Positions 24,901-57,347 of a stretch of 64,000 bases of DNA are shown piece by piece. The DNA is from Verrucomicrobiia bacterium. Lineage in GTDB: Bacteria > Verrucomicrobiota > Verrucomicrobiia > Limisphaerales > UBA8199. The stretch covers positions 50,643 through 114,642 of the forward strand of contig DASYXT010000039.1 of assembly GCA_035934555.1 (NCBI GenBank), given 5' to 3'. Every line of letters begins with the position of its first letter. The first letter of the stretch is position 1. The notes under the pieces are model-generated. The model was not told where the DNA came from and did no database searches. It worked only from the letters and a program-made list of their open reading frames with translations. The position numbers and the translations under genes are program-made.

Positions 24901-26253
24901 TCAAGCCTTCGGTTCCCAGCCGGGCTCGTATTCGCGGCGCCAGAGCTTCATCGCGTCAGCGTCGTCCTGGATATGCCCGTTGGCCGGGTCCAGGTGCAGT
25001 TCGCGGCTGACGCGCCAGGAAATGTTGCCCAGGTGCAGCATCGTCACGCTCTTATTGCCCTCGGAAATAGGCGAATTGGGCTGCTGGCCGGTGCGGACGC
25101 AATCCAGGAAGTTCTTCACATGCAAACGGTCCAGGTCCAGCCCGCTGGCGCTGACGGTATTTGTCGGATCGGCCTTGGAATTGCCTTTGACTTCTTTGAC
25201 CTTCTTCTTGTGATTATCGAAAATGGTGTAGTTGTTGCCGTCCAGCAAAGCGACCCCTTGGGTCCCGTAAATCAGGGAGCCGCGCTCCAGCCCTTCAACG
25301 GGATAGCCGTTGCAACTGCGGCCTTCCCAAGAAATGGTCTTGCCTTCGGCATAATCCCAACCGATGACCTGCGTGTCGGGCGTTTCCCAATCGTCCTGGA
25401 ACGCATACCGTCCGCCATTGGAACTGACGCGGATAGGCCAATCGACACCCAACGCCCAGCGGCATACGTCCACTTCATGGGTGCCGTTGTTGAGGGCTTC
25501 GCCGGTGCCCCAATGCCAGAACCAGTGCCAATTATAGTGGATGAGATTGCTGCGATAAGGCCGGCGCGGGGCCGGGCCTTGCCAGAGGTCGTAATCGAGC
25601 CAGCTCGGCACCGGCGCGTTGTGCCCGTGGCCAATCGAGCCGCGATGATTGGTGTACCAGGCGCGGGCGAAATACGTCTTGCCGATGAGGCCGTTGTGGA
25701 GGTCGCGTATCACCTCTTGCATGTTGGGGAATGAGCGGCGTTGGTTGCCCATTTGCACGATCTGCTTGCAATTGCTTACCGCCTGCGTCAGCAACTCGCC
25801 TTCATACGGGTTCTGGCAGCAGGGTTTTTCGACATAGACGTGCTTGCCGGCGGCCAAGGCCAGCAACGCCATCGGCGTGTGCCAATGGTCCGGCGTCGCG
25901 ATGGTGATGGCATCAACCGATTTGTCCTCAAGGATCGTGCGGAAATCCTTCGCGCCTTTCGGCGCACGTTGCTGTTTCCCGGCGGCTTTAAGACCTTTGG
26001 CCAGCGCACGCTCATCCACATCACAGATGTAGGCGATCTCCGCTTCCGGCAACCCGAGCAGGCAATCGATGTGGGCCAGCCCGCGGCCGTTGGTGCCGAT
26101 GACGGCCACCGCGAGTTTGTCGTTGGGGCCGACGGTGCGGGGAGCCGCGCTGCTCCAGCGTGTCAGGCCAGCCAGGCCAAGTCCCAGGCCGATTTGCCCC
26201 GTTTGCTTCAGAAAATTTCGCCGGTTGATGGAATCATGCATAGGATAAGACAT
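24901..26253 (-). CDS. Tat-signal Gfo/Idh/MocA family oxidoreductase
   Basis: RRNFLKQTGQIGLGLGLAG Tat motif and the NAD(P) Rossmann motif LAVAVIGTNGRGLAH. Confidence 0.85.
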   Translation of the reverse strand: MSYPMHDSINRRNFLKQTGQIGLGLGLAGLTRWSSAAPRTVGPNDKLAVAVIGTNGRGLAHIDCLLGLPEAEIAYICDVDERALAKGLKAAGKQQRAPKGAKDFRTILEDKSVDAITIATPDHWHTPMALLALAAGKHVYVEKPCCQNPYEGELLTQAVSNCKQIVQMGNQRRSFPNMQEVIRDLHNGLIGKTYFARAWYTNHRGSIGHGHNAPVPSWLDYDLWQGPAPRRPYRSNLIHYNWHWFWHWGTGEALNNGTHEVDVCRWALGVDWPIRVSSNGGRYAFQDDWETPDTQVIGWDYAEGKTISWEGRSCNGYPVEGLERGSLIYGTQGVALLDGNNYTIFDNHKKKVKEVKGNSKADPTNTVSASGLDLDRLHVKNFLDCVRTGQQPNSPISEGNKSVTMLHLGNISWRVSRELHLDPANGHIQDDADAMKLWRREYEPGWEPKA

Positions 26254-26570
26254 GGGTCATGACCCGGGAGAAGGCAAGCAAGAACAGGCGGGCGTGATGA
26301 GAGGCCAGGACCAATGCATGAAGGCTGGGGGCGGGAACCGAATGAAACAAACGAACTGTGCGGGGGGCGGGGTGTGGCGCGTTCCAACCTGCCTGTGTGG
26401 CGACGGCGCGGGGAGGACCTAGCCCTGCCGAGCTGAGAAGGCGTGAAGCGTGGGAGCGTGGGAGGGTGCAACGTGGGGGAAGGGATGCGGAGCGGGGAAC
26501 GGCAGGGCGACGGGCCGAAGCGCCTAGCCACACAGCAAACTGGATTGGGTGGTGGAGTGATGGAGTGGCG

Positions 26571-26605
26571 TTGAGCATTGAGTATTGAGCGTTGAGCATT
26601 GAGTG
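26571..26605. repeat. Five tandem heptads: TTGAGCA TTGAGTA TTGAGCG TTGAGCA TTGAGTG
   Basis: Read directly. The 7-bp period puts a TGA in all three + frames. Confidence 0.8.
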
Positions 26606-26779
26606 TTCTTGGTGGCCGGCGGTGAATTCAAAGGTGGCATTTTCCGTGCGCGCCAGGGTGCGGTTGGTGAGTTTGTCGAACCGGGCGGAGAGGGATTTCA
26701 GTGCCGCGGTGAGGAGGGCGTCGTTGGTGGAGTCGGTAAGACCGAGGCGAGATTTGAGGGCGGGGAGGGTGGTGAGCAT
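26606..26779 (-). pseudogene. Orphan fragment resembling the N-terminus of a phage gp6-like head-tail connector protein
   Basis: MLTTLPALKSRLGLTDSTNDALLTAALKSLSARFDKLTNRTLARTENATFEF fits the remembered L-K-x-x-L-R-I/L...D-x-L-L...A-A...T-x-R-x-L pattern. After about 58 aa the reading frame runs into the heptad repeat and low-complexity sequence. Confidence 0.3.
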
Positions 26780-26794
26780 GGGGGAGGGGATGGA

Positions 26795-26822
26795 TTTTTG
26801 AATTTTGAATTTTAAGTTTTGA
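26795..26822. repeat. Four tandem heptads: TTTTTGA ATTTTGA ATTTTAA GTTTTGA
   Basis: Read directly, immediately upstream (on the minus strand) of the connector-like fragment. Confidence 0.7.
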
Positions 26823-26991
26823 TTGGGTTGGCGCTCGTGGCGAGCGATGACCCGCCTTCGCTACGCTACGGCCCGGGGGATTGGAAATGTGAAATCTGTG
26901 AGTGGGTGAAGGTGTGAAAGGAAAATGGCAGATCCGAGAGGGTAAGGAGCGGCAGCGAGCGTTGGGCTGCTGCCGCTCTGGAGCGGATGGA

Positions 26992-27588
26992 CTAGCGCTT
27001 TCGTCGCGTGTAGGCGAGGGTTGCTGCGGCGAGTGCGGCGAGGGCCAGGGCTGAGGGCTCGGGCACGTAGATGCCCTCGCGGAACCAGAGGTCACTACCA
27101 CTCGCAGCGCGGCCAAGATAATAAGCATCACCGCGGTAGTAATCATAGGAACCGGCTGCGATGTTCCACTGTACCCAAGATGGCGTTTCCACAACTTCGA
27201 AGAAATACAGTGTGTCGGGAGTCAACGAAATAATGGAAGGGAAGAAGAAGTTCTCGACGCCGGTGAAACCGTTCGGCATTGCGACTGTGTCACTTGTTCC
27301 GAGAATGGTCCCGGAAAAGGAATTCGCCCGCAGGTTCAGGTGAATGGTCGTCCCCAGGCCGTCATTGGGATTGCCGTCGTTTAGATTAAGGCGGACGAAG
27401 TTTACTCCCGACAAAGTCGGGGTAAATGATTGGCCACAGGGTGCGATGGAGGGGAGTGAGCCGCCGCCACCATATCCCCATGGCGTTTCATCCGTGGAAG
27501 ACTGTTGGTCATAAAAGAATGTGCCTTGGCCGAGCGCAAGTGATACCCAAAGCAACCCGGGTAGCAAACTCGTAGCTAGTATTTTCAT
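26992..27588 (-). CDS. PEP-CTERM sorting domain-containing secreted protein
   Basis: N-terminal signal peptide. The C-terminus VPEPSALALAALAAATLAYTRRKR is PEP, then a TM helix, then a basic tail. Confidence 0.85.
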   Translation of the reverse strand: MKILATSLLPGLLWVSLALGQGTFFYDQQSSTDETPWGYGGGGSLPSIAPCGQSFTPTLSGVNFVRLNLNDGNPNDGLGTTIHLNLRANSFSGTILGTSDTVAMPNGFTGVENFFFPSIISLTPDTLYFFEVVETPSWVQWNIAAGSYDYYRGDAYYLGRAASGSDLWFREGIYVPEPSALALAALAAATLAYTRRKR

Positions 27589-27592
27589 AGGA

Positions 27593-28066
27593 CTATTGGG
27601 GAATTGGCGGAATGTCTATTGGGGCAAATGTACAGCCTTCGAAATGTCCATAGAGGTTGTTTGGCAGGCTGATACGCCATTGCCGGAAAGCGTTGTTAAC
27701 GGTGTCCCAGTGCAAAATGTAAAGATTTCCGTACCCCGGCGGCGCCTCCCCGGACTCTTCGATTAGGATATCTCCTGCGTGACCCGAGAAATACGTCCTT
27801 GAAAGCTTGAGCACCATACTCTGGGAGGAGTCCGCGCCTGACCAAAAGGCGCAATAGAGGTCCTGGTTCGTGGGAATCAGCCGGAATTGATCAGCGTTGA
27901 TTCCAAGACTGAACGGAGTCCAAAACCCGTTTGTTTGAATCGCGTAGATGGCTGCTTGTGAGTGGAGGGTGATAAGCATTGGTGCGGCAAGTGCGGCTAC
28001 TTTTCCAATCAATTTACTGATAGGTATCATTCGGATTCCTTTCTCTGCTACTCGGATTTGTTTCAT
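27593..28066 (-). CDS. Secreted hypothetical protein, co-oriented 4 bp upstream of the PEP-CTERM gene
   Basis: Signal-like segment (LIGKVAALAAPMLITLHSQA). No family recognised. Alternative start at 28030. Confidence 0.4.
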   Translation of the reverse strand: MKQIRVAEKGIRMIPISKLIGKVAALAAPMLITLHSQAAIYAIQTNGFWTPFSLGINADQFRLIPTNQDLYCAFWSGADSSQSMVLKLSRTYFSGHAGDILIEESGEAPPGYGNLYILHWDTVNNAFRQWRISLPNNLYGHFEGCTFAPIDIPPIPQ

Positions 28067-36091: not shown

Positions 36092-37888
36092 TTAGCTTTC
36101 CACCGGTTCGGTTTGGGAGTGGGTGCCATTGCCCTGGAGGGCGATGACCATTTCGCGCAGCCGTTCGAGGACCTCCCCGGGCTGGATGGGATTGGAGCCG
36201 CTCTTGGCCAGTGGTTTGACCAGCGGTGGACAATCCACATACATCCGGACCAGCCGATAAAGCTGGCCCTGGAAAGACTGTTCGACGAACAGGCCGCGGC
36301 GGACCGACGCGAAGAAATCCTGATAGACCTGCTCGACGACCGGATAAAGCAGTTTTGGGATGAGCAGCTTGGCGTGCCATCCTTCGGCGCGGGCCAGGCG
36401 CAACGCCTCGCGGGCGACGCCGGCCACGCTGCCCCAGCTCACCAGGCCGATGGGAGCATCGGGGTCGCCTTCGATAGTGAACAGGTCGCGGCGGTTCTTG
36501 AGCGAGTTGAATTTTCTGAATCGCTTTTCGTTCATGCGCGCGTGCATTTCGCCGCTGGCCGTCGGGCGGCCCGTCTCGTTGTGCTCGATGCCGGAGGCCA
36601 GGTAGTTGCCGCCCGGCATTCCCGGATGACTCAGCGGGCTGATGCCGGATTCGGTCAGGCGAAAGCGGGCGTAATTGGCCAGCTCATTATCCGTCGGCCG
36701 GCGCCGCTCGATGATTTGGACTTTGGAGGTGTCGATCGGTTCGACGGTTTCTTTGCGCTGCGCGATTTCCTGGTCGGAAAGCACAATCACCGGACTTTGG
36801 TAGTGTTCGGCGAGGTTGAAAGCTTCGACGGTGACAGGGAAAACATCCGCCACGCTGGTGGGTGCCAGCACCGGGCGCAGACAATCGCCGTGAGCGGAGA
36901 AGGCGGCCTGGAACAAATCGGACTGCTCGGCTTTGGTGGGGATGCCGGTGGAGGGTCCGCCGCGCTGAACGTTGATGCAGACCAAGGGCAGCTCGGCAAT
37001 GCTGGCCAGGCCGAGCATCTCGGTTTTCAACGACATCCCAGGCCCGGAGGTGGCCGTCATCGCCTTCTTGCCGGCGAATGAGGCCCCGACCACTGCGCCA
37101 ATGCCCGCAATCTCGTCCTCGGCCTGCATGACGGTGCCACCATACTTCCAAAGTTCCCGATCGAGAAACTGCATGATCTCTGTCGAAGGGGTAATGGGAT
37201 AACCGCTGAAAAAGGTGCAGCCGGCGAACAGCGCCGCGGCGGCGCACATATCGTTGCCGTCGGTGAGCAGCTTGGCCGCGCGCCGGCCCTCGGGGGTCTC
37301 GAGTTTGCGATCCTGCTTGAGCGGGTTGGCTTCGGCAAATTCCAGCCCAGCCTGGAACGCACGCACATTGCCTTCTACCACCGGCGCGCCTTTCTTGGCA
37401 AATTTCTTGCGAATCCCGGCCAGCATACTCTCGCGGCCGATGCCGAACCAGCCGGCCAGCAACCCGGCGATCACAATGTTTTTGGCTTTATCGGTGCCGG
37501 CGTTTTTCTGGGCCATCTCGGTGATGGGCACGCTGAAGACCATCGCCGGCGTGACACCTTCCAGCGGCAGCTTATCCGGCGCAACGCCCGTCGCGCTCTC
37601 GTAAATCACAATCGTGCGCGACTCGACCGGCAATTCGGCGCCGAACCGGCGGAAATCCTCCCAATTGAGGGCAACGGCGACATCCAGCGGACCATTCGGA
37701 TTGAGGACCGGGTGGGTCGCCAACCGGAGCCGGCAGGACGCTTCGCCGCCGCGGATTTGCGAGCCGAAGCTTTTGGTCATGAGCCCGTGGAAACCCTCGA
37801 GGGCGGCGGCGGTGACCAGCGATTCACCGGCCGAAATAACCCCATCGCCGCCGGACCCGGCGATGCCAATAATCAAATCTTGACTCAT
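36092..37888 (-). CDS. korA: 2-oxoacid:ferredoxin oxidoreductase alpha subunit
   Basis: Fused gamma/alpha-type architecture of 598 aa, with a GSGGDGVISAG start and GGPSTGIPTK. Confidence 0.88.
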   Translation of the reverse strand: MSQDLIIGIAGSGGDGVISAGESLVTAAALEGFHGLMTKSFGSQIRGGEASCRLRLATHPVLNPNGPLDVAVALNWEDFRRFGAELPVESRTIVIYESATGVAPDKLPLEGVTPAMVFSVPITEMAQKNAGTDKAKNIVIAGLLAGWFGIGRESMLAGIRKKFAKKGAPVVEGNVRAFQAGLEFAEANPLKQDRKLETPEGRRAAKLLTDGNDMCAAAALFAGCTFFSGYPITPSTEIMQFLDRELWKYGGTVMQAEDEIAGIGAVVGASFAGKKAMTATSGPGMSLKTEMLGLASIAELPLVCINVQRGGPSTGIPTKAEQSDLFQAAFSAHGDCLRPVLAPTSVADVFPVTVEAFNLAEHYQSPVIVLSDQEIAQRKETVEPIDTSKVQIIERRRPTDNELANYARFRLTESGISPLSHPGMPGGNYLASGIEHNETGRPTASGEMHARMNEKRFRKFNSLKNRRDLFTIEGDPDAPIGLVSWGSVAGVAREALRLARAEGWHAKLLIPKLLYPVVEQVYQDFFASVRRGLFVEQSFQGQLYRLVRMYVDCPPLVKPLAKSGSNPIQPGEVLERLREMVIALQGNGTHSQTEPVES

Positions 37889-38106
37889 ACATTACTTATT
37901 CTCGTTTTCGGCGCCAATTCCGCTCTCCCTCTCTTGCCAAATCTTGAACATTTTTTACTCACTCAAATAATAAGTTCAACTGTTTGATGGGGAACCGAGC
38001 ATCAAGCCGGGTGGTTGGTGAGCGGCGGTCTGTCCCTCGAAGTTCACGAAATCGTGGCTTGTTTTCGGGGCGGTACTCGGTTAATCATGCTGTGGCAGGC
38101 AGTTGC

Positions 38107-38916
38107 ATGAATAAGACCCTCGTGGTGGTACCGACATACAACGAGCGGGAGAATCTTCCACCGCTCGCGCAACGGCTTATGGGCCTGCCGGTGCCGGTCG
38201 ATATGCTGGTCGTGGACGACAACTCCCCTGATGGCACGGGCAAGCTCGCCGACGAACTGGCCGCCAAAGAGGAACGCTTTCACGTTCTGCACCGCACCGA
38301 GAAAAATGGCCTGGGCCGCGCGTATATCGCCGGGTTTAAATGGGCGCTGGAACAAGGCTACGAATTCGTCTTCGAGCTGGATGGCGATCTATCGCATAAC
38401 CCCGACGATATCCCGATGTTTCTGGAGGCGGCCAAGGAAGCCGACCTCGTGCTGGGCTCGCGCTATCTCAACGGGATTCGCATCATCAACTGGCCGCTGA
38501 GCCGGTTGATGCTGAGCAAGAGCGCCGCCAAATACGTGCAGGTAGTCACCGGCATGCCGTTTACCGATCCCACCGGGGGATACAAGTGTTTTCGGCGCCG
38601 CGCGCTGCAGGCGCTGAACCTCGATGAGGTCCACTCCAACGGCTACAGTTTCCAGATCGAGATGACCCATAAACTCTGGCGCCAGGGCTTGAGGGTGGTC
38701 GAGGTGCCGATCATCTTCACCGACCGTTTTCAGGGGCACTCGAAGATGTCGGGTCACATCGTCAGCGAGGCGTTCTGGATGGTGTGGGGGTTGCTGCTGC
38801 AGAACAAAATGCGGCGACGCCCGGGGATGCTAACTCACAGAGATTCTCAAGCGCCGCCACCGCCGGGGCAGCCCTCGGGCAAACCGGCGGGCGTCGGCGC
38901 GAGCAAAACCGTTTGA
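38107..38916 (+). CDS. Polyprenol-phosphate mannose synthase (GT2, Dpm1-like)
   Basis: VVVPTYNERENL, VVDDNSPDGT and DGDLSHNP motifs. Start trimmed to MNKTLVVV. Confidence 0.85.
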   Translation: MNKTLVVVPTYNERENLPPLAQRLMGLPVPVDMLVVDDNSPDGTGKLADELAAKEERFHVLHRTEKNGLGRAYIAGFKWALEQGYEFVFELDGDLSHNPDDIPMFLEAAKEADLVLGSRYLNGIRIINWPLSRLMLSKSAAKYVQVVTGMPFTDPTGGYKCFRRRALQALNLDEVHSNGYSFQIEMTHKLWRQGLRVVEVPIIFTDRFQGHSKMSGHIVSEAFWMVWGLLLQNKMRRRPGMLTHRDSQAPPPPGQPSGKPAGVGASKTV

Positions 38917-38925
38917 CCGGCTTGG

Positions 38926-39049
38926 CGGAGGGCGGACTTCAGTCCGCAGCAATAATCGAATTGAAGCCGGTTTGGATATTGTCACAGCGCACTTGGGCGT
39001 CCGGACGTTGCTGCGGGCTAAAGTCAGTCTAAAGTCCGCGCTCCGCCCC
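38926..39049. repeat. REP/MITE-like nested-palindrome element, copy C (both arms)
   Basis: Left arm ggcggagggcggacttcagtccgcagcaat and right arm gttgctgcgggctaaagtcagtctaaagtccgcgctccgcc, around a core of about 55 bp. Confidence 0.8.
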
Positions 39050-39114
39050 GCAGTTGACAATCCTCTGCGCGCGGGGTACTTGCAGGAACAGATCAAACGC
39101 AGCTAATAACTCCT

Positions 39115-39651
39115 ATGCGCATCTTTTATCTTCTAGGATTGGGATTGCTCGCCGTAGCCACCGCGGTTTTCCAGGCCTTCGCGGGCGATGGCGGGATGCC
39201 CAAAGCGGGCGACCCGGCGCCGCGGGTCTCCGGCACCGACCAGGCGGGCAACGAGTGGCGCCTGGCCGATGTCGTCGGCAAGAAAGTCGTGCTGCTTTAT
39301 TTTTATCCTAAAGACGACACACCGGGTTGCACCAAAGAAGCCTGCGGGTTCAGGGACCGGATCGCGGAGCTAAAGAAGCAGAACGTGGAGGTTGTCGGCG
39401 TGAGTTTCGACGCGCCCGACAGCCATCAGAAATTCATCGCCAAGTACAACCTGAATTTCCCGCTGATTGCCGATACCGACGGCAAAATCGCCGACGCCTA
39501 TGGCGTGCGGATGTTGGGGCGCAAGATGGCGCGCCGGGTGAGCTTTCTGATTGGGCTCGACGGCAAGATCGTTCACGTGACCGACACGATGAACGCCGAG
39601 ACCCACCTGAGCGAAATGTCCCAGGCGGTCGAGGCCTTGAAAAAGGGCTAG
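39115..39651 (+). CDS. bcp: Secreted peroxiredoxin (Bcp-type thiol peroxidase)
   Basis: Signal peptide plus FYPKDDTPGCTKEACGFRD. Confidence 0.85.
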   Translation: MRIFYLLGLGLLAVATAVFQAFAGDGGMPKAGDPAPRVSGTDQAGNEWRLADVVGKKVVLLYFYPKDDTPGCTKEACGFRDRIAELKKQNVEVVGVSFDAPDSHQKFIAKYNLNFPLIADTDGKIADAYGVRMLGRKMARRVSFLIGLDGKIVHVTDTMNAETHLSEMSQAVEALKKG

Positions 39652-39667
39652 GTTGCGTTACGGCGTT

Positions 39668-39694
39668 GTTCGTCCTGGAGCAGTCAGGACGAAC
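39668..39694. terminator. Perfect 10-bp stem hairpin between convergent genes
   Basis: GTTCGTCCTG gagcagt CAGGACGAAC, 17 nt after the bcp stop and 29 nt before the stop of the minus-strand oxidoreductase. No U-tract on either side. Confidence 0.4.
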
Positions 39695-39722
39695 CGGGCA
39701 CGAGGGAACGGCCCCAGCCCAT

Positions 39723-41069
39723 TCAGGCGTGGGCTTTCAGGTAAGGGAGTGACCATGGCCGGCGATACTCGACGGTCGTCAGCTTTTGCGCGCCAGCATC
39801 GTCGATGATGCGCTCCTCGGCTCCGTCCCAGTGTACCTTGCGGCCGGTCCGGAAGGCGATGTTGCCCAAATGCGCGACGGTTGAAACATGGTGGCCGATG
39901 TCGAGGTTGAGCACCGGCGCTTTTCGCGATTGGACGCAATCCAGGAAATTGCGCACATGGGCCGGGCGCGGGTCGCCGCTGCCGGGGCTCTTGCGCGCGT
40001 CCAGGTTGGCTTGCTTGCGTTCGGGGCGGATTTCCCAACCTTCGTCATTGAGGATGATGTTGCCTTCGGTGCCGTTCCATTCGACGCCCCAGGCGCGGTT
40101 ATTAAGCCCGTTGTTCAAGCCGGCTTTGTGCTCCCAAATCAGCGTGTAGCTGGGGAACTCATAAACGGTGACCTGCGAATCGGGCGTTTCGGAATTATCA
40201 TCGAAGTAGAATTTGCCGCCGCTGGAGCAGGCGGATTTGGGTGCCTCAGGCCCCATGCCCATGAGCATCATATTGATGAGGTGGACGCCCCAATCGGTCA
40301 TCAGGCCGCCGGCATAATCCCAGAACCAGCGGAAATTGAAATGAAACCGGTTGGGATTGAAGGGGCGGTTGGGGGCAGGTCCCAGCCACATATTGTAATC
40401 GACGCCCGCAGGCGGCGCGCAGTCCGCGGGCTTGCCGATGCCATTCAACCAATCGAGGTAAGCCCAGCCGCGCACCACGCTGACCTTGCCGAGCTTGCCT
40501 GAGCGGATGAGGTCGGTGGCTTCAATGATATGTTTACAACTGCGCCATTGTGAGCCCATCTGCACGATGCGGTTGTGGCGGTGAGCGGCCTCGCGCATCG
40601 CGCGGCCTTCGGCGATGGTTTTGGCCAACGGCTTCTCGACATACACGTCCTTGCCCGCCTGGCACGCGAGCACGGTCGGCAAGGCATGCCAATGATCGGG
40701 CGTGGCGATTAAAACCACATCGACGTCCTTGCGTTCGAGCACGCGGCGGAAATCTTTGACCGTGTCCGGGCGGTGGCTGCGTTTGTTTTCGCAAATTTCG
40801 ACCGCCTTGGCGAGCATCGCATCATCGACATCGCACAGCACCGCGCAGTCCACCTCCGGGTTGAGAAAGAAACATTCGAGGTCGCCTTTGCCCATGCCGC
40901 CACAGCCGATCACCCCGAGCCGCACTTTGGCATTGGGCCCGGGCTCGGCGGCGCGAACGGAACGGACCCAAGGGGCGGCGAGGGAGGACAAAGCGAGGGT
41001 GCCGCCGGCGGCGAGCGAAGTTTGGCTAATAAACGAGCGTCGGGAAACTTTTTTCATAAATAAAAGCAA
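39723..41069 (-). CDS. Tat-signal Gfo/Idh/MocA family oxidoreductase
   Basis: SRRSFISQTSLAAGGTLALSSLAAP and LGVIGCGGMGKGD motifs. Confidence 0.85.
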   Translation of the reverse strand: MLLFMKKVSRRSFISQTSLAAGGTLALSSLAAPWVRSVRAAEPGPNAKVRLGVIGCGGMGKGDLECFFLNPEVDCAVLCDVDDAMLAKAVEICENKRSHRPDTVKDFRRVLERKDVDVVLIATPDHWHALPTVLACQAGKDVYVEKPLAKTIAEGRAMREAAHRHNRIVQMGSQWRSCKHIIEATDLIRSGKLGKVSVVRGWAYLDWLNGIGKPADCAPPAGVDYNMWLGPAPNRPFNPNRFHFNFRWFWDYAGGLMTDWGVHLINMMLMGMGPEAPKSACSSGGKFYFDDNSETPDSQVTVYEFPSYTLIWEHKAGLNNGLNNRAWGVEWNGTEGNIILNDEGWEIRPERKQANLDARKSPGSGDPRPAHVRNFLDCVQSRKAPVLNLDIGHHVSTVAHLGNIAFRTGRKVHWDGAEERIIDDAGAQKLTTVEYRRPWSLPYLKAHA

Positions 41070-41118
41070 GACAGCGTTTTATGATCGACATTCCAGGCCC
41101 CGGGGAGCACCCTCGGGC

Positions 41119-41436
41119 ATGGACTCCGATGAGCGAGACATTTGCATATACCTGCGCGGGTGGCGAGGGCAATTCGTAGCGTTAAAGGAGATCAACCGGC
41201 GCGCGGCGGGCAAACGGCGTTATCAGGAGGATTCCAACTGGGCCGTGCCGGTGCTGGGGCGGCTGCTGGAGAACGGAACGATCGAGTCCGATTCGACGGG
41301 CCATTTTCGTTTGAAAGCGAAGCCCAAAAGGGAAAAACAGAAACAATGGCTGGCGCCGCATATTCGCAAAGCGCTCGAGGCGAGCGGGAAGAAGTTTGAA
41401 GGCGTGCTCGAGATCGAAGATGAATCGGAGTTTTAG
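41119..41436 (+). CDS. Small hypothetical protein (105 aa)
   Basis: Internal ATG of ORF 40702..41436; everything upstream of it is antisense to the oxidoreductase. The sequence is basic and lysine-rich, and no family is recognised. Confidence 0.35.
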   Translation: MDSDERDICIYLRGWRGQFVALKEINRRAAGKRRYQEDSNWAVPVLGRLLENGTIESDSTGHFRLKAKPKREKQKQWLAPHIRKALEASGKKFEGVLEIEDESEF

Positions 41437-43502
41437 AACCCTTCGAGTGCCAGGTCGGCCAAAACATCCACCCAATCGACCGCCAAGGGAGCGGTCATTT
41501 CATAGGAGCGGGCGAAGTCGGCTTCAAAAAGCTCATGTTTGACGCGAGCGCCGAACACGGGGTCGGAGCTGGCGACATTTTGTTCGTGATTCACGCGCAG
41601 GCTCAGATGATTAAGGTTGCCTGAGCCGAGACAGGCCCAACCGTCCACCAGGAGGGCTTTCACGTGGGTCATCGCCGGGTAAAAATAGACACGGACCCCG
41701 TGGGCGTGGAGGTAATTGGCCAGCACAATATTGCTGCGGGCGCCCGCTTTGAAATCGTTGACGCAGGGCAGGACCACGCGCACGTCCACCCCGCGGTTGC
41801 GCGCTTCAACCAAAGCGATGATCACGCGCTTATCGAAAAGGTACGGGTTTTCCGCATAGATATAACCCTGGGCCTGGTGCAAAGAGCCAAGCACGGCGGC
41901 GGCAAAGGGTTTCCAGGCCGTGGCGGTGGGCAATAAGCGCACCTGCGTCCATTCGTTTGTAGAGGGCGGGAATTTGTATTTAGGCGAGGTCCGCAGTAAA
42001 GAGGCTGTGTAGGCCAGGTCGCCTAGGGGCCCTTCGTGCGCCCAATGATGGCGAAACTGGGTTTCGAGTGAATTGACCACGGGGCCTTCCAACTCCACCA
42101 TCAAATCGTGCCATTCATAACGGTACTCCCGTCCGATATTCATTCCCCCCAGCCAGGCCCGGTAACCATCGACCAGCACCACTTTCGAATGGTCGGCCGA
42201 AAACCAGGGATTGAGGAATGGACGCACATGCACATCCGAGCCATCCCGCAAATAGGAGATGATCGATTTAGGGGGAACAAAATCTTCCGGCATGGGTGTG
42301 GCGGGAGGCGCCGCGCCGGCGGCGATGCTGCCCATCCGATCGAGGATAACCTGCACCGGGATTTGCCGAGAGCGCGCCTTGAGCAAGTCCGCCATGCCCA
42401 CAGCCACATCGTCTTTGTCGAAGATGTACATGTCCAAGCGGATGTGGTTGGTGGCGTTGGCGATGCCCTCGCGCAAGCGAGGGAAGAACTGATCGCCATC
42501 GATGAGCAGCTTCAGCGAGCCCTGCTGCAACCGAGTGCCCGTGTAGCGGTCCAGCCAGGCTTCCCAGTTGGTGAGGTTCATCCCGACCGCGTGAGAGGGC
42601 GGTGGCGGGGAGTAACCGGGTTTGGGCAAGGGGAACCGGATGAAGCGCACGAGGCTTTCGACGGCCAGGTCGGCAAGCCGCGCGGCACTGGACACGGGGT
42701 TCTTCAGCAGCGCCCAGCCGTGGCTTTGTGGCAGCAACGCAACGAACCCCTGGGCCGTCAACGAGAGGAACACGCCGCGCTCGGTCGAGTCATAAAGGGC
42801 CGCCGGAGCTAGGAAAACGCACCCGCGCCGTTGACGGTCCACAAGCAAAGGCTGGGTGAAGCGCTTGGCGTTAGGGGCCATCACCAGGAAGAGAGAATCG
42901 CCGGGATGCGTGCGAGTGAGGTGCTGGTCGATGAGGCGCGCCAGCACTTCGAGTGTCTCATCCAGCGAGTAGCGATGTTCGATGACCACGCCCGGAACAG
43001 CGTCGCCGAGCATGGCGAATCGAGGCGCCCCCGTCGCGTCACGATACAGCAGCCGATCGCTTAGATAGGCCTGGTAGTAGGCCCCATGGCCCGGTGTTGC
43101 GGGAGTGAGTTCCGAGAGGAGGTTCGTCGCAATCTGGCGCCAATCTGAACCCGCGATTACCGTCGCCTTTCGCCACCCGCGTCCCCGCGGCGCCGCGGAC
43201 GAAAGGTCGGGGTCCCAGTGTAATAGTGCCGAGCTGACGCGGTAACGGCCGGTGGGAACGCGCAAGCGCGTCCAGTGCGCCTCGAAGGCGATGGCGCCCG
43301 TCGGACTGTAAAAAGCAAAGCGAACCTGGTCGCCTTTGACGAATACACTCGGCGGGGGAGAGGACGGAGCGGTCAATGCGCGCCATTCATCGAGGGATTT
43401 TTGCTTGGAGGTAAAGGGCCTGGCCGCCGTTGACAGACATCCCAGCAGCAGGCACAAAAGAATCGTGCGCGCGCAACACGGGAACCGGCGGTGGATACTC
43501 AT
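41433..43502 (-). CDS. Phospholipase D / cardiolipin synthase-like protein with two HKD motifs and a large N-terminal domain of unknown function
   Basis: HSKVVLVDGYRAWLGGMNI and HVKALLVDGWACLGSGNLN motifs. Signal-like N-terminus from MSIHRRFPCCARTILLCLLLGCLS. Confidence 0.75.
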   Translation of the reverse strand: MSIHRRFPCCARTILLCLLLGCLSTAARPFTSKQKSLDEWRALTAPSSPPPSVFVKGDQVRFAFYSPTGAIAFEAHWTRLRVPTGRYRVSSALLHWDPDLSSAAPRGRGWRKATVIAGSDWRQIATNLLSELTPATPGHGAYYQAYLSDRLLYRDATGAPRFAMLGDAVPGVVIEHRYSLDETLEVLARLIDQHLTRTHPGDSLFLVMAPNAKRFTQPLLVDRQRRGCVFLAPAALYDSTERGVFLSLTAQGFVALLPQSHGWALLKNPVSSAARLADLAVESLVRFIRFPLPKPGYSPPPPSHAVGMNLTNWEAWLDRYTGTRLQQGSLKLLIDGDQFFPRLREGIANATNHIRLDMYIFDKDDVAVGMADLLKARSRQIPVQVILDRMGSIAAGAAPPATPMPEDFVPPKSIISYLRDGSDVHVRPFLNPWFSADHSKVVLVDGYRAWLGGMNIGREYRYEWHDLMVELEGPVVNSLETQFRHHWAHEGPLGDLAYTASLLRTSPKYKFPPSTNEWTQVRLLPTATAWKPFAAAVLGSLHQAQGYIYAENPYLFDKRVIIALVEARNRGVDVRVVLPCVNDFKAGARSNIVLANYLHAHGVRVYFYPAMTHVKALLVDGWACLGSGNLNHLSLRVNHEQNVASSDPVFGARVKHELFEADFARSYEMTAPLAVDWVDVLADLALEGF

Positions 43503-43546
43503 GCCTGAGCAGCGTTGTTTTCCGGCGGAGACGGCCACGCTCCCGG

Positions 43547-43765
43547 TCAGCGCAGCCGATAAGTAATCCGAGCTTTGGTCAGGTCGTACGGGGACATTTC
43601 CAAACGGACTCGGTCGCCGACGGTGAGGCGGACGAAGTGTTTGCGCATTTTGCCGGAAAGGTGTGCGAGGACCTCGTGTTCGTTGTCCAGCTTCACGCGA
43701 AACATCGTGCCCGGCAACACCGTTGAAATGGTGCCTTCGAGTTCGATTGGTTGTTCAGTACTCAT
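43547..43765 (-). CDS. infA: Translation initiation factor IF-1
   Basis: 72 aa: [64 protein letters not shown]. Confidence 0.95.
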
Positions 43766-43849
43766 GCGCGCAGTACAGGCCGTAAGCGCGTGGTAAGCTC
43801 ACATGTTTCCGAGGTGACAGCAAGCAATTAACAGACGGCGCACGAGAAC

Positions 43850-44751
43850 TCAGGGAATCGAGACGAGGTTCGTGCCGGTCAGCGGATCCAGCGGGACCGC
43901 GTGCAGGTACTCCGGGACGAGCTCTGCAGGATTAGCAGGGCGGTGGCCGCGCTCCAATTCATAAGCCCGCGCCGCAAGGGTCAACACCAATAGCCGCGTA
44001 CGAATTTCGATAGCCGCGTAGCGGGCAGAATAACTCCGCACCGTCGCCGCGTGGGTGCGCAAGCTTATTAGCCGATAGTAGTAATAGCGCCAGCCTAACG
44101 CGCGCCTGGCCCAACGGTCATCGTTGGCGATAAACGTCCGGGCAGATTCGCGCCGCGCTTCGCTCCTTTCCAATTCCGTGGCCAGCTTCCGGCATTCTTT
44201 GGCATCGAGCCCGGGAGCAAGCTTCTCGAGCGGCGTTAGCCCGATGGATTCCACCGCTATACCCACGAGCGAGTCAATGATCAGCCCGCCTCGGCTTTGT
44301 TCCTGTCCCAACCGCACGGCCGCAAGATAATCCCCGGCCGCAGTGACCGGGTCGCGGTCCAATTCGGCGACGTGTCCCTCTGCTGCCAACGCAAATCCGA
44401 GCCGCTTCAGAACCGCCAGATTCGTTCCGTGAGGCAGGTCAGCAGCGAATACCACAGGCACGCGGCATTGGCAAGCCAAACCGGTGCAGCCAAACCGGTG
44501 CGGACCAGATTCAACGAAATGGAGTTGGAGGCCAGCAAGGCCCGCAACTCAGGTGGAGGCAAGGCGCGGAAATCCGAAATGGCGGAAGGGAGAAGCCAGG
44601 CCGCCTTAACGAAAGCATCGTAGCCATTGGGATTTGGGAACGCGGATGGGGTGGGGGGTGGCTGGCGCAGAGTCATGACCACCAACAGAACGAGAGCCAA
44701 GGCAACCGCACCGCTCAGCACCACGAGGAATCTGGCAAATGCCCGGCGCAT
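43850..44751 (-). pseudogene. Membrane-anchored helical hypothetical protein gene disrupted by a 14-bp tandem duplication
   Basis: The ORFs 44407..44751 and 43850..44479 are in different frames. Removing one copy of the duplicated 14-mer (44474-44487 / 44488-44501) joins ...LVRTGLA to CQCRVPVVFAADLPHG... in a single frame. Confidence 0.7.
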
Positions 44752-44860
44752 ACGGAGCCACTGTGGAGACGCGCCGGCACGGCGTCAACGCTCTCCCGCT
44801 CCGCCGCTGCACGCTCTTAGCTTGTCAAACCCGTAACGGCCCTCCTACTCTCGAAAAGCA

Positions 44861-46057
44861 ATGGCGCCCCGCCCACCTCTAACCGTCGCCTGGATTTCCT
44901 ATTTCCCCATCGAATGGCTGCCACAATTGCCCGAGCTGCTGAGGAATTTGCCCAAGCTCCACCCGGCCACCTGGCAACGCGTGCTGCTGGATGAACTGCG
45001 CGCGCGCACCGATCTGAAGCTGCATGTGTTCGCGGTGCGCAAGCACTTTCCGCAGCACCAAACATTCGAATGGGAAGGGGTGACGTTCCATTGTTTGAAA
45101 GTGCCGGGCGGGTTTCGGACCTTGTCGCTGTTTTGGTGGGAGACGTTGCTGCTGCGGCCGCGCTTGAAGGCGTTGCGCCCGGACCTGGTCCACGCGTGGG
45201 GCACGGAACGCGGCGCGGCGATGGTCGCCTCGCGCCTGCGTTATCCGTACCTGGTGACCATGCAAGGCCTGCTTGAATGGTACCTGCAGCAGGTGGATTT
45301 GGGGCGCGTGATGCGGCTGGAATCGCGCCTGGAACGCATCAGCCTCAAGCGAGCCTCGGTCGTGACGGTCGAATCAAGGTTTGGCGTTGATTGGCTGCGC
45401 CGGCATTATCCGCACCTGGAAGTCCGGCAGGCCGAGCATGCCCCCAACTGGCTGTTCCACCAGGTGCAACGCCGTCCTCAGCTTCGTCCACTCCACTTTC
45501 TTTTTGTCGGGATTATGTCGCTGATCAAAGGGACGGACCTTCTGCTGCACGCGCTGGACCGCTTGCGGACGGAGCTGGATTTTCGACTGACCGTGGTAGG
45601 TTCCGCCCCCGCCGAGTTTTTGGCGCGGATGAAAGCGTCAACCTCGGCGGCCCTTTGGGAGCGGATCACGCTGCGGCACGGGTTGAGCCAGGCACAAGTC
45701 GCTGAGGAAATGGCCCGCGCCACAATGGTTTTGTTCCCCACGCGAGCGGATAATAGCCCCAACTCGGTCAAGGAGGCCGTTGTGGCCGGCGTGCCGGTGG
45801 TCGCGTCGGCCATTGGCGGGATTGTCGATTACGTGTTGCCGGACCGGAACGGCATCACCTTTCCGGCAGGCGACCTGGAGGAGTTGGTGAGAGCGATCCG
45901 GGCGGCGGCCGCTCACCCGCTGTTCAGTCAGGGCCAGGTCCAGCCGCAGACGCTGCGACAAATGCGCGAGTACCTGTCGCCGAGGAAAATGGCGACGGAA
46001 TTCTTCGCCGCGTACGAGCGTGCCGCGCGAGAACCGATTGAATCGAACAGGAGTTAA
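44861..46057 (+). CDS. Glycosyltransferase family 4 (GT-B)
   Basis: C-terminal domain motif FPTRADNSPNSVKEAVVAGVPVVAS (E-x7-E region). Confidence 0.8.
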   Translation: MAPRPPLTVAWISYFPIEWLPQLPELLRNLPKLHPATWQRVLLDELRARTDLKLHVFAVRKHFPQHQTFEWEGVTFHCLKVPGGFRTLSLFWWETLLLRPRLKALRPDLVHAWGTERGAAMVASRLRYPYLVTMQGLLEWYLQQVDLGRVMRLESRLERISLKRASVVTVESRFGVDWLRRHYPHLEVRQAEHAPNWLFHQVQRRPQLRPLHFLFVGIMSLIKGTDLLLHALDRLRTELDFRLTVVGSAPAEFLARMKASTSAALWERITLRHGLSQAQVAEEMARATMVLFPTRADNSPNSVKEAVVAGVPVVASAIGGIVDYVLPDRNGITFPAGDLEELVRAIRAAAAHPLFSQGQVQPQTLRQMREYLSPRKMATEFFAAYERAAREPIESNRS

Positions 46058-46443
46058 CAGAGAAGACAGAGGCCGTAAGGCGCGATCGATTTCCGTGAGT
46101 AGAGGCTGCCATGGAAACCCCTCCGTTTTCTCTGTTTCCTCCTGTTCAATTCTGCAGGGTTGGGGCCGGGGACTCAGCTAGCGCGAGTACCTGTCGCCGA
46201 GAAAAATGGCGACGGAATTCTTCGCCGCGTACGAGCGTGCCGCGCGAGAACCGATTGAATCGAACAGGAGATAACAGAGAAAACAGAGGCCTAAGGACGT
46301 ACTGCAGCGCGGTCTTTTGTCGTGAAAGCTCACCAAACCGTAAGGCGCGATCGATTTCCGTGAGTAGAGACTGCCATTGAGAACCCTCCGTTTTCTCTGT
46401 TGCCTCCTGTTCAATTCTGCCTGGTTGGGGCTGAGACTCAGCT
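45964..46443. repeat. Segmental tandem duplication (copy 1 at 45964-46179, copy 2 at 46181-46443); each copy carries a 33-bp-arm hairpin element
   Basis: Both copies start gcgcgagtacctgtcgccgag and end ggg(c/g)tga/ggactcagct. Copy 2 has a 1-nt deletion in the gene-derived part and an extra block of about 47 bp in the hairpin loop. Confidence 0.85.
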
Positions 46444-54578: not shown

Positions 54579-57347
54579 ATGATCAAAGCAGCCTCCCTCC
54601 CCCTGTGTCTCACTCTGTTGCTGGCGGCCGCCGGCGTTGCCTACGCTCAGGCCCCAGCCCAGGAAACCGCGGTTAACGAAGCCGTCATGCGCCAGGCCGA
54701 GCACGTCCTGCTCCGCCAAAAGCTCGGCGACGCCCTTGCCGCCCAGGAACGCCATGACCTGGCCAACGCCGCCAAGCTTTATGACGCCGCCTGGGACCTG
54801 GTGCTCAAGGTCGGCATCGCCAATGTCGAACCCGAAGCCGCCCAGACCCGCGCCGGCCTGGCCGCCGTGCGCATGGAATTGGCCCGCGGCGACCAGCGCC
54901 ACGGCGCCTATCGCGAAGCCGGCCTGGAAGTGGATGATGTGCTCCGCGCCGATCCTGGCAATGCCGAAGCTCTGGCGTTCAAACACGCCAATGACAAAAT
55001 CATCCAGGACATGCGCGGGCACGTGGCTGACAATGCAACGCTCAGCCAGGTCCCCACCATCATGAACGAGAAGAAGGACGTCGCTACCCTGGTTCAGAAT
55101 GGCAAGCTGCTCTTCGAGATGGGCAAAATCCCCGAAGCCGAGGCCATCCTTAAGCAAGCGACCAAACTAGACCCGCAAAATCAGGCCGCGTACTATTACC
55201 TCAACCTCATTAGCGAAGCCAAATACCAGGAAGCGCTGAATCGCCGCGACATCGCCTCCCGCACCGGCCTGGTCGATATCGAAAAGGCCTGGGCGACTTC
55301 GCCCAAGCGCGACTTGCTGCCGCAGCCCAACATGTACGCGCGCACCAACCTGATCAATACCAGCGCCGGCCGCCGCATCATTTACAATAAACTCAACCGG
55401 ATCCGTCTGGATGAGGTCAAGTACCAGAACCTGCCTTTGCGCGAGGTCGTCAACAACCTCTATGACCAGGCCAAGCGGCGCGACCCGGAGAAGCGCGGTA
55501 TTAACTTCATCATCAACAATAACGTGGATACTGCGGTCAACCCGCTGGCTCCCCCCACCGGCGGGCCCGTTCCTACCGATCCGACTACTGGCTTGCCCCT
55601 GCCGCAGGCTGCCCCGGCTGAGCAAACCGATATCGGCGATGCCTCCATTAAAATCGATCCGGCCCTGACGGATGTCAGCCTCGCGGATGTCCTCGATGCC
55701 ATTGTCAAAGTTTCCGACAAGCGCATCAAATACTCCGTCGAGGATTACGCAGTCGTTTTCTCTGTCAAAGCCAACGACCCCCAACCGCTCTATACCCGGG
55801 TGATTAAAGTGGACCCCAATACTTTTCAACAAGGTTTGGAAGGCGTCACTGGGTTTGACTGGGGTTCGATTGCCCAGGCCAGCAATGGCGGCGCCGGCGG
55901 CGGCGGCGGTATTGGTGGCGGCGGCGGTATTGGTGGTGGCGGCGGTATTGGCGGCGGCGGCTTGGGCGGCGGCGGCCAGGGTGGCGGCTTGCTGACGGTG
56001 CCGCGCATCAACGTTGCCGGTGGCACAGCCGGTGGCGGTATCGGCGGCGGCGGCGGCGGCGGCGTTGGCGGTGGCGTTGGCGGCGGCGGCATTTTCGGCG
56101 TGACCATCACGAACAACATGGTCGCCCGGCAGGCGATGGTCCGCCAATTCTTCCTCACCATGGGCGTCGATCTCAACCCGCCCAAGACCGTCTTCTTCAA
56201 CGATCGCGAAGGCACCATTATCGTGCGCGCTACCCTCCAGGACCTCGATACCATCGAACAGGCCGTCCAGGTCCTTAACATTGCTCCGCCTCAGATCCAC
56301 ATTAAATCCAAGTTCCTCGAAGTCGCTCAAAACGACACCCGAGCTTTTGGCTTCGATTGGTTCCTGGGCAACTTCCTGATGGGCGGCGGTAAACTCGCCG
56401 CCGAAGGCGGCACCGCGCCCTCTTATAATGGCGTGCCGACCGCGGCCAATCCGCAGGGCTTTTTCCCCGGCACCCAAGGGCCCAATGCCGCCGCCGGCAT
56501 CGCGGGTAACACCATTGCTCCTTCGGCTTCCGACCAACTCATCACCTCCGGCTTGCGTAACACCGTCAATGCCCCGGCGATTGCAACCCTCACTGGCATC
56601 CTGACCGACCCACAATTCCGCGTAGTGGTTAAGGCGCTTGAACAGCGCGACGGCACCGACCTGCTGGCCGAATCGTCCGTCACGACTCTCAGCGGGCGCC
56701 AAACCGAAGTTGAAGTCCTGGACCTGCAAACGATCGTCATTGGTAACACCGTCGGCGGCGTGGGCGGCGCCAGCGCCGCGCCCACAACTGGAGGAATTGG
56801 TTCGACTGTCCTTAGCCAAACGCCCATCGGCAGCAGCTACGCAACCGAAACCCTGCCCTTCGGGCCGACACTCGATTTGATTCCCTATGTGGATGCGGAT
56901 GGTTTCACGATCCAGATGACCATTATTCCCACCTACGTCGAGTTCATCGGCTATGACAATCCCGGCCAGTTCGTGCCGCAAGCCCAATCGGTCGCCGGCA
57001 ACAACATCGGCGTGCCCATCACCGGCGTGCTGCCACTGCCACGCTTCCGGGTGCGCCAGGTTACCACCTCCTGCATTGTCTGGGACGGCCAGACCATCGT
57101 GCTGGGCGGCCTCATTTCCGAGCACGTCAGCAAGGAAATGGATAAAGTGCCGATCCTGGGCGATATCCCGATGGTGGGCCGGTTATTCCGCAACGAATCG
57201 AGTGTCAGCCAGAAAAAGAACCTGATGATCTTCGTCACCCCGACGATTATCGATCCCGCGGGCAATCGCTTCCATTCGGAGGACGAAATGCCCTTTGCCC
57301 AGAACGCGATCCCGCTGCAAAAGCCGATCGTGCCGCCGGCGCAATAA
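54579..57347 (+). CDS. Secretin (type II/III secretion system family, PilQ/GspD-like) with a TPR-like N-terminus and a poly-Gly insert
   Basis: C-terminal secretin signature VPILGDIPMVGRLFRNESSVSQKKNLMIFVTPTIIDP, signal peptide, and an N-terminal helical repeat region. Confidence 0.85.
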   Translation: MIKAASLPLCLTLLLAAAGVAYAQAPAQETAVNEAVMRQAEHVLLRQKLGDALAAQERHDLANAAKLYDAAWDLVLKVGIANVEPEAAQTRAGLAAVRMELARGDQRHGAYREAGLEVDDVLRADPGNAEALAFKHANDKIIQDMRGHVADNATLSQVPTIMNEKKDVATLVQNGKLLFEMGKIPEAEAILKQATKLDPQNQAAYYYLNLISEAKYQEALNRRDIASRTGLVDIEKAWATSPKRDLLPQPNMYARTNLINTSAGRRIIYNKLNRIRLDEVKYQNLPLREVVNNLYDQAKRRDPEKRGINFIINNNVDTAVNPLAPPTGGPVPTDPTTGLPLPQAAPAEQTDIGDASIKIDPALTDVSLADVLDAIVKVSDKRIKYSVEDYAVVFSVKANDPQPLYTRVIKVDPNTFQQGLEGVTGFDWGSIAQASNGGAGGGGGIGGGGGIGGGGGIGGGGLGGGGQGGGLLTVPRINVAGGTAGGGIGGGGGGGVGGGVGGGGIFGVTITNNMVARQAMVRQFFLTMGVDLNPPKTVFFNDREGTIIVRATLQDLDTIEQAVQVLNIAPPQIHIKSKFLEVAQNDTRAFGFDWFLGNFLMGGGKLAAEGGTAPSYNGVPTAANPQGFFPGTQGPNAAAGIAGNTIAPSASDQLITSGLRNTVNAPAIATLTGILTDPQFRVVVKALEQRDGTDLLAESSVTTLSGRQTEVEVLDLQTIVIGNTVGGVGGASAAPTTGGIGSTVLSQTPIGSSYATETLPFGPTLDLIPYVDADGFTIQMTIIPTYVEFIGYDNPGQFVPQAQSVAGNNIGVPITGVLPLPRFRVRQVTTSCIVWDGQTIVLGGLISEHVSKEMDKVPILGDIPMVGRLFRNESSVSQKKNLMIFVTPTIIDPAGNRFHSEDEMPFAQNAIPLQKPIVPPAQ

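Follow-up and report, generated by a model that had tools for sequence, protein, structure and literature searches.

A 14-bp tandem duplication probably inactivates a membrane protein gene in a strain of an uncultured Verrucomicrobiae species

Tandem duplications that arise within a reading frame have been described in cap3A of the pneumococcus (Waite et al. 2001, cited in PMC11163986) and in phcA of Ralstonia solanacearum (Poussier et al. 2003, cited in bioRxiv 10.1101/2023.04.27.538605), and were reported to revert, in planta in the case of phcA. As related in the citing articles, a spontaneous duplication turned these genes off and its exact loss restored them; many independent duplications were obtained, reversion was measured in culture, and the phenotype was selectable. 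In simple-sequence-repeat contingency loci, the reading frame of surface-protein genes of host-adapted bacteria is toggled by the copy number of a tract, ranging from homopolymers to units of ~9 nt. Short-tandem-duplication null alleles, which belong to a common class of spontaneous insertions, consist of a perfect repeat within an ORF whose length is not divisible by three.

The locus analyzed here compares with each of these systems. It resembles cap3A and phcA, as far as they are presented in the citing articles, in that a spontaneous intra-ORF tandem duplication would turn the gene off and its exact loss would restore it, and it resembles the contingency loci in that the copy number of a repeat would toggle the frame of a probable envelope-protein gene. 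The likeness to the null alleles is closer: a perfect intra-ORF repeat of a length not divisible by three was found, a close relative carries a single copy with the gene intact, and other damage is absent; only the complete lack of microhomology at the ends is unusual here. The event is an ordinary kind of mutation.

The repeat is located at 44474-44501 of the window (the whole 64,000-nt stretch of DNA that was analyzed), inside the minus-strand gene 43850..44751, and is a perfect head-to-tail array of two 14-bp units. Copy 1 (44474..44487) reads AGCCAAACCGGTGC on the + strand and GCACCGGTTTGGCT on the coding (minus) strand; copy 2 (44488..44501) is exactly the same, and the newer of the two units is indistinguishable from the older one. 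Tandem Repeats Finder reported a period of 14, 2.0 copies, and 100% matches. The duplication is exactly 14 bp long, as the flanks break the repeat on both sides (a at 44473 vs. c at 44487, and g at 44502 vs. a at 44488), and microhomology at its ends is zero. When perfect two-copy tandem repeats with periods of 8-40 were searched for, none with a period of at least 12 was observed in 100 Markov-1 simulated windows, and the same scan of the real window returned the 14-bp duplication and a GGC-rich 18-mer array at 55899. A simple chance expectation for a 14-mer duplication is 64000 x 4^-14, or ~2.4e-4 per window. Chance does not account for the 14-bp tandem duplication. No further copy of AGCCAAACCGGTGC, even with one mismatch, was detected elsewhere in the window; the 14-mer, found at a single site, is thus not a dispersed repeat motif.

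Two minus-strand ORFs that overlap by 73 nt cover the gene. The N-terminal fragment ORF (44407..44751, 114 aa), annotated by NCBI as hypothetical protein VG167_04705 (HEV2208051.1), begins with a strongly hydrophobic helix, FARFLVVLSGAVALALVLLVVMTL, and reads ...LVRTGLAAPVWLANAACLW... across the duplication; it consists of 88 native residues, including the membrane helix, followed by 26 out-of-frame residues and a stop. The C-terminal fragment ORF (43850..44479, 209 aa) opens at a TTG inside the duplication, and was called by NCBI as a 201-aa protein (VG167_04700, HEV2208050.1) whose start, counted from this length, is the GTG at 44455. This fragment is devoid of a membrane helix, and no Shine-Dalgarno-like motif was seen ahead of its candidate starts. 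Deletion of one unit yields a single 295-aa ORF reading ...LVRTGLACQCRVPVVFAADLPHG..., so that the whole disrupted gene encodes a 295-aa protein once one unit is removed. An earlier note on this DNA had claimed a perfect 14-bp tandem duplication at 44474-44501, an upstream ORF frameshifted and stopped with the downstream ORF 43850..44479 in the other frame, and a single protein of about 295 aa after removal of one unit. The repeat was confirmed both by the sequence and by Tandem Repeats Finder, the frames are as described, and the 295-aa ORF is collinear with its homologues.

In the mechanism that we propose, 14 bp were duplicated in tandem within a 295-codon gene in one lineage of an uncultured Verrucomicrobiae species. 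The extra 14 nt shift the frame past residue 88, and translation would end 26 codons on. The remaining product would be a 114-aa membrane-anchored stub, and the 207-residue helical domain would be made only via inefficient internal initiation, without the membrane/export helix. As judged from the reading frames, the function of the gene has presumably been lost through the duplication.

With the restored protein as query, 159 proteins were retrieved at E ≤ 0.001. Among the 120 matches listed, most were 288-300 aa long, which gives more than 100 intact homologues of ~295 aa, none was split at the duplication point, and the only 100%-identical one was the 201-aa C-terminal fragment VG167_04700 ('MAG TPA Verrucomicrobiae bacterium'). 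The earlier note had proposed to look for orthologs that are split at this point without a duplication, and none was present among these listed matches. When 16 full-length homologues chosen from the match list were aligned with the restored protein, the latter was collinear with them from end to end and all 17 invariant columns were present. The alignment was gap-free at the junction (LVRTGLACQCRVP in the window vs. the consensus LARTGLxRxCRVP), with no repeat or insertion there in the 16 homologues. The homologues were mostly found in Verrucomicrobiota assemblies (Verrucomicrobiae, Pedosphaera, Limisphaerales). A scan of GTDB species representatives with the family alignment returned 52 loci, the best at 44% identity, and the window's own species was absent among the representatives scanned.

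No Pfam family was found for the restored protein at E ≤ 1, and neither an NCBIfam match nor a PDB sequence match was obtained. In an AlphaFold2 model (pLDDT 85.9, pTM 0.79), a helix over residues 2-29 holds the hydrophobic membrane segment and is followed by an all-helical repeat domain. A Foldseek comparison of this model with the PDB gave no match at E ≤ 0.001 (best E = 0.05; TM-scores of ~0.1-0.3 normalized to the query), the top rows being TPR and designed helical-repeat proteins, all insignificant. The model resembles TPR-like helical repeat proteins in being all-helical with paired helices, but differs from them in the lack of any significant Foldseek, Pfam, NCBIfam, or PDB sequence match. 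An assignment as a TPR protein was therefore rejected, given the absence of a Pfam family at E ≤ 1, the best Foldseek E value of 0.05, and the low TM-scores. As a working description based on the model, the product may be regarded as a membrane-anchored helical-repeat protein of an unnamed family, and we infer that it probably faces the periplasm. The family has a conserved C-terminal motif, LVPxYLKxIPxDPLTGTN, which may loosely resemble the C-termini of pseudopilins.

A sister strain of the same species was found in a 12.7-kb Logan contig of run SRR12347822 (L058), which is 97.2% identical to window positions 37822..45993 over 8.1 kb and has the same gene order: a GT4 glycosyltransferase, the disrupted gene, infA, a PLD-like gene, and further genes. 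This contig holds GCACCGGTTTGGCT exactly once (L058 1493), within an uninterrupted 295-aa ORF, P0121. The 90% cluster of the C-terminal fragment contains this intact protein together with P0001 and P0122, which are two start calls on the C-terminal fragment of the two-copy allele. The presence of one unit and of an intact gene in a conspecific strain indicates that the single copy is ancestral and the duplication derived, and the latter is younger than the ~2.8% divergence between the strains. The claim that a membrane protein gene is frameshifted is thus backed both by the homologues and by this strain.

Seven indels separate the two strains over the 8.1 kb, and the 14-bp indel is the only intragenic frame-breaking one identified among them. 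In the comparison with the sister strain, the restored gene showed a dN/dS of 0.26 (dS 0.12), a value indicating that purifying selection acted on it over most of the divergence. The dN/dS values of its neighbours were 0.08 (GT4), 0.05 (PLD-like), and 0 (infA); the disrupted gene is less constrained than these neighbours. No second stop or frameshift was found in either fragment and the family-invariant residues are all kept, and for these reasons the inactivation looks recent.

The divergence between the strains is unevenly distributed. The N-terminal 88 codons differ at four sites only, and the strain-specific SNPs nearest to the duplication are at 44450, 44471, 44515, and 44529. A hyper-divergent patch was found in the C-terminal part, where the 200-bp bin 43800-43999 has 24 of the 176 mismatches and the segment 43900-44012 holds 25. 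Nine amino-acid changes fall in residues 249-279, and one of them, E260Q, puts the intact allele of L058 at odds with a family position that is invariant elsewhere. The patch suggests mosaic recombination or fast evolution of the C-terminal part. A recombination breakpoint at the duplication was considered and rejected: the divergence is patchy, yet it is unchanged at the site. In the neighbouring PLD-like gene, the call is 526 aa long in L058 (2964-4544) vs. 689-701 aa in the window strain (41433-43538), and the strains differ by a 3-bp indel immediately upstream of the start region (window ~43541).

The two-copy allele was recovered in Logan, an assembly effort separate from the metagenome-assembled genome (MAG), the comparison being made at the level of contigs. 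Contigs of three runs were 100% identical to the window and carried both units: a 6049-bp contig of SRR12347819 (L001; 5166 bp compared), a 2812-bp contig of SRR12347818 (2812 bp compared), and a 17752-bp contig of SRR12347817, also present in a second sample (8166 bp compared). Both the 114-aa N-terminal fragment and the C-terminal fragment were called on the contigs of the three runs. SRR12347817, -18, and -19 are consecutive accessions, probably from related samples of one study, and thus represent independent assemblies but perhaps not independent populations; a search for papers naming the SRA runs found none. In at least three runs, the two-copy form is the only allele assembled for the window strain, or the dominant one, and it is thus apparently fixed or nearly fixed in this strain.

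These data bear on the explanations that compete with a genuine loss of function. That the duplication is an artefact of assembly or sequencing, the real genome having one unit, is extremely unlikely. The window does come from a MAG (NCBI 'MAG TPA'), and MAGs do carry indel errors; however, the identical two-copy allele was found in three separate Logan assemblies, on contigs of 2.8 to 17.8 kb, and from a fourth run, with a different strain, the same assembler gave the one-copy allele. Logan uses de Bruijn assembly with k = 31, which is above the 28-bp repeat. If this value applies, the reads must contain k-mers that span both units, and graph traversal cannot create a feature that is shorter than the k-mer. 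The assembly or sequencing error that the earlier note had named as an alternative is thus effectively excluded by the three runs with an identical two-copy allele. As for the origin of a real duplication, the lack of microhomology at the ends gives no indication of simple slipped mispairing between short repeats that were already in place. The zero microhomology would fit a fill-in of staggered nicks 14 nt apart better than slipped mispairing, in contrast to a 6-bp duplication in L058 (aligned near window 38942), which follows a CTGA matching the start of its unit. When a single unit is present, positions 44458..44487 can also fold into a weak, imperfect 30-nt hairpin (11 pairs, -7.3 kcal/mol as DNA), and the duplicated unit coincides exactly with its 3' half, between the centre of the loop and the last base of the stem; among 63956 windows of 30 nt, only 97 reach this stability and are also closed from end to end. 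Against this, the hairpin does not stand out from shuffles of its own 30 nt (z = -1.1; 27 of 200 shuffled sequences folded equally well or better) and the coincidence was spotted post hoc, so that it was kept as a lead only; the corresponding hairpin of the sister strain, with a C to G change at the position matching 44471, folds at -5.3 vs. -7.3 kcal/mol. Transposon remnants are absent, and target duplications of 14 bp are unusual for bacterial insertion sequences. We consider an origin by staggered nicks rather than by polymerase slippage very improbable, its variants being the target-site footprint of an excised cut-and-paste element or hairpin cleavage followed by end joining. Of the 'very recent inactivating slippage event' put forward in the earlier note, the recent inactivation was therefore upheld, but classical slippage was not.

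The explanation that we favour, with good confidence, is that of a real, recently arisen, strain-specific loss-of-function allele. A two-copy allele that is fixed or nearly so would mean that the gene is dispensable in this setting or that its loss was favoured. The same allele might instead be one state of a reversible switch, with the duplication as 'off' and the precise loss of one unit, at a bet-hedging rate, as 'on'. Exact reversion of a perfect tandem duplication is possible in principle, and the remainder of the gene shows no damage. The product, with its N-terminal membrane helix, probably belongs to the envelope, and genes of this kind are often phase-variable; cap3A and phcA provide precedents for duplications with reversion. 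The locus has, however, just two units of 14 nt, and no tract of several copies or of degenerate copies was found at the duplication; the sister strain is single-copy, with nothing repeat-like at the site. It differs in this from the contingency loci, in which a tract is present, and no copy-number series was found here. It also differs from the many independent duplications reported for cap3A and phcA in the citing articles: a single duplication allele, known from assemblies alone, is apparently fixed in three runs, and recurrent independent duplications of varying length in the disrupted gene were seen neither in the cluster nor among the matches listed. The three runs with the window strain assemble through the site with two units, and a one-copy allele on this haplotype was not found in the assemblies, minority one-copy alleles being invisible in contigs. 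The exact restored protein was absent from a 15-billion-sequence collection. JGI metagenomes gave no match to a variable-gap DNA pattern that fits either allele, so that this collection does not contain the window strain. The duplication could be lost by deletion between the units, as in any tandem duplication, and deletion between 14-bp repeats is usually rare. On balance, a reversible switch is unlikely, and it is somewhat less likely still that the allele is the 'off' state of a cap3A-type duplication/reversion switch acting on an envelope-anchored helical-repeat protein in a free-living bacterium and perhaps seeded at the hairpin. That the gene was functionally split, giving two separate useful proteins or a full-length product by ribosomal frameshifting, has hardly any chance of being correct. 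The ORFs do share 73 nt, and each is annotated by NCBI as a protein, but none of the listed homologues is split at the duplication point, the sister strain has the fused gene, the C-terminal piece is without a membrane helix, and no X XXY YYZ slippery heptamer was found on reading 44407-44560. Programmed ribosomal frameshifting was rejected as a candidate, as the listed homologues are single ORFs and the overlap contains no such heptamer.

VG167_04705 and VG167_04700 are the halves of one disrupted gene, and the annotation should be changed to a pseudogene or a frameshifted CDS. If the allele is a loss-of-function allele, as we favour, the locus would provide a clean natural case of strain-level gene loss, in which the intact and the broken alleles are both available within one species and from sister samples, and the unnamed membrane-anchored helical-repeat family would be dispensable in at least one natural population. 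Were mixed alleles to occur on one haplotype, the locus would be a rare duplication-based switch in an environmental bacterium, to which nothing points now; such a switch, if true, would extend bet-hedging beyond pathogens to an environmental lineage and would give a handle on the function of a family found mostly in Verrucomicrobiota.

The genes surrounding distant homologues were also compared. A conserved neighbourhood with infA, PLD, or GT genes was not found among them. Their recurrent neighbours lie on the opposite strand, with a PTPS (6-pyruvoyl-tetrahydropterin synthase) followed by a LuxC-type reductase downstream and a membrane protein upstream, and are uninformative on function. In some Verrucomicrobiota genomes, two tandem paralogues of the family adjoin glmM (L004 3071-4867). 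In another contig (L056 6978-7631), the next gene downstream encodes a prepilin-type N_methyl plus SBP_bac_10 (DUF1559) protein.

Neither Rfam nor tRNA scanning returned a match in the whole window, and several other repeats were observed in it. In the region 45964-46431, the final ~94 nt of the GT4 gene (44861..46057), together with what follows them, occur again as a direct duplicate in the spacer before glmM: 45964-46074 is found again at 46181-46291 (97%) and 46073-46166 again at 46338-46431 (93%). Each copy contains a pair of 33-nt inverted arms with the motif GAATCGAACAGGAGNTAACAGAGAANACAGAGG, which has four matches in the window, all of them here, when none is expected. The contigs L002, L058, and L059 begin or end at this GT4-glmM spacer repeat, and L001 (SRR12347819) runs past it. 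Arrays rich in GGC/CGG, among them a perfect 18-bp x 2 repeat (GGCGGCGGCGGTATTGGT), were found at 55887-56090 within the long + strand ORF 54579..57347, where they presumably encode a glycine-rich low-complexity segment. Finally, the region 26000-28000 shows an unusually high GC skew (0.225) and contains several short 7-8-bp tandem arrays, at 26447, 26549, 26571, and 26796.
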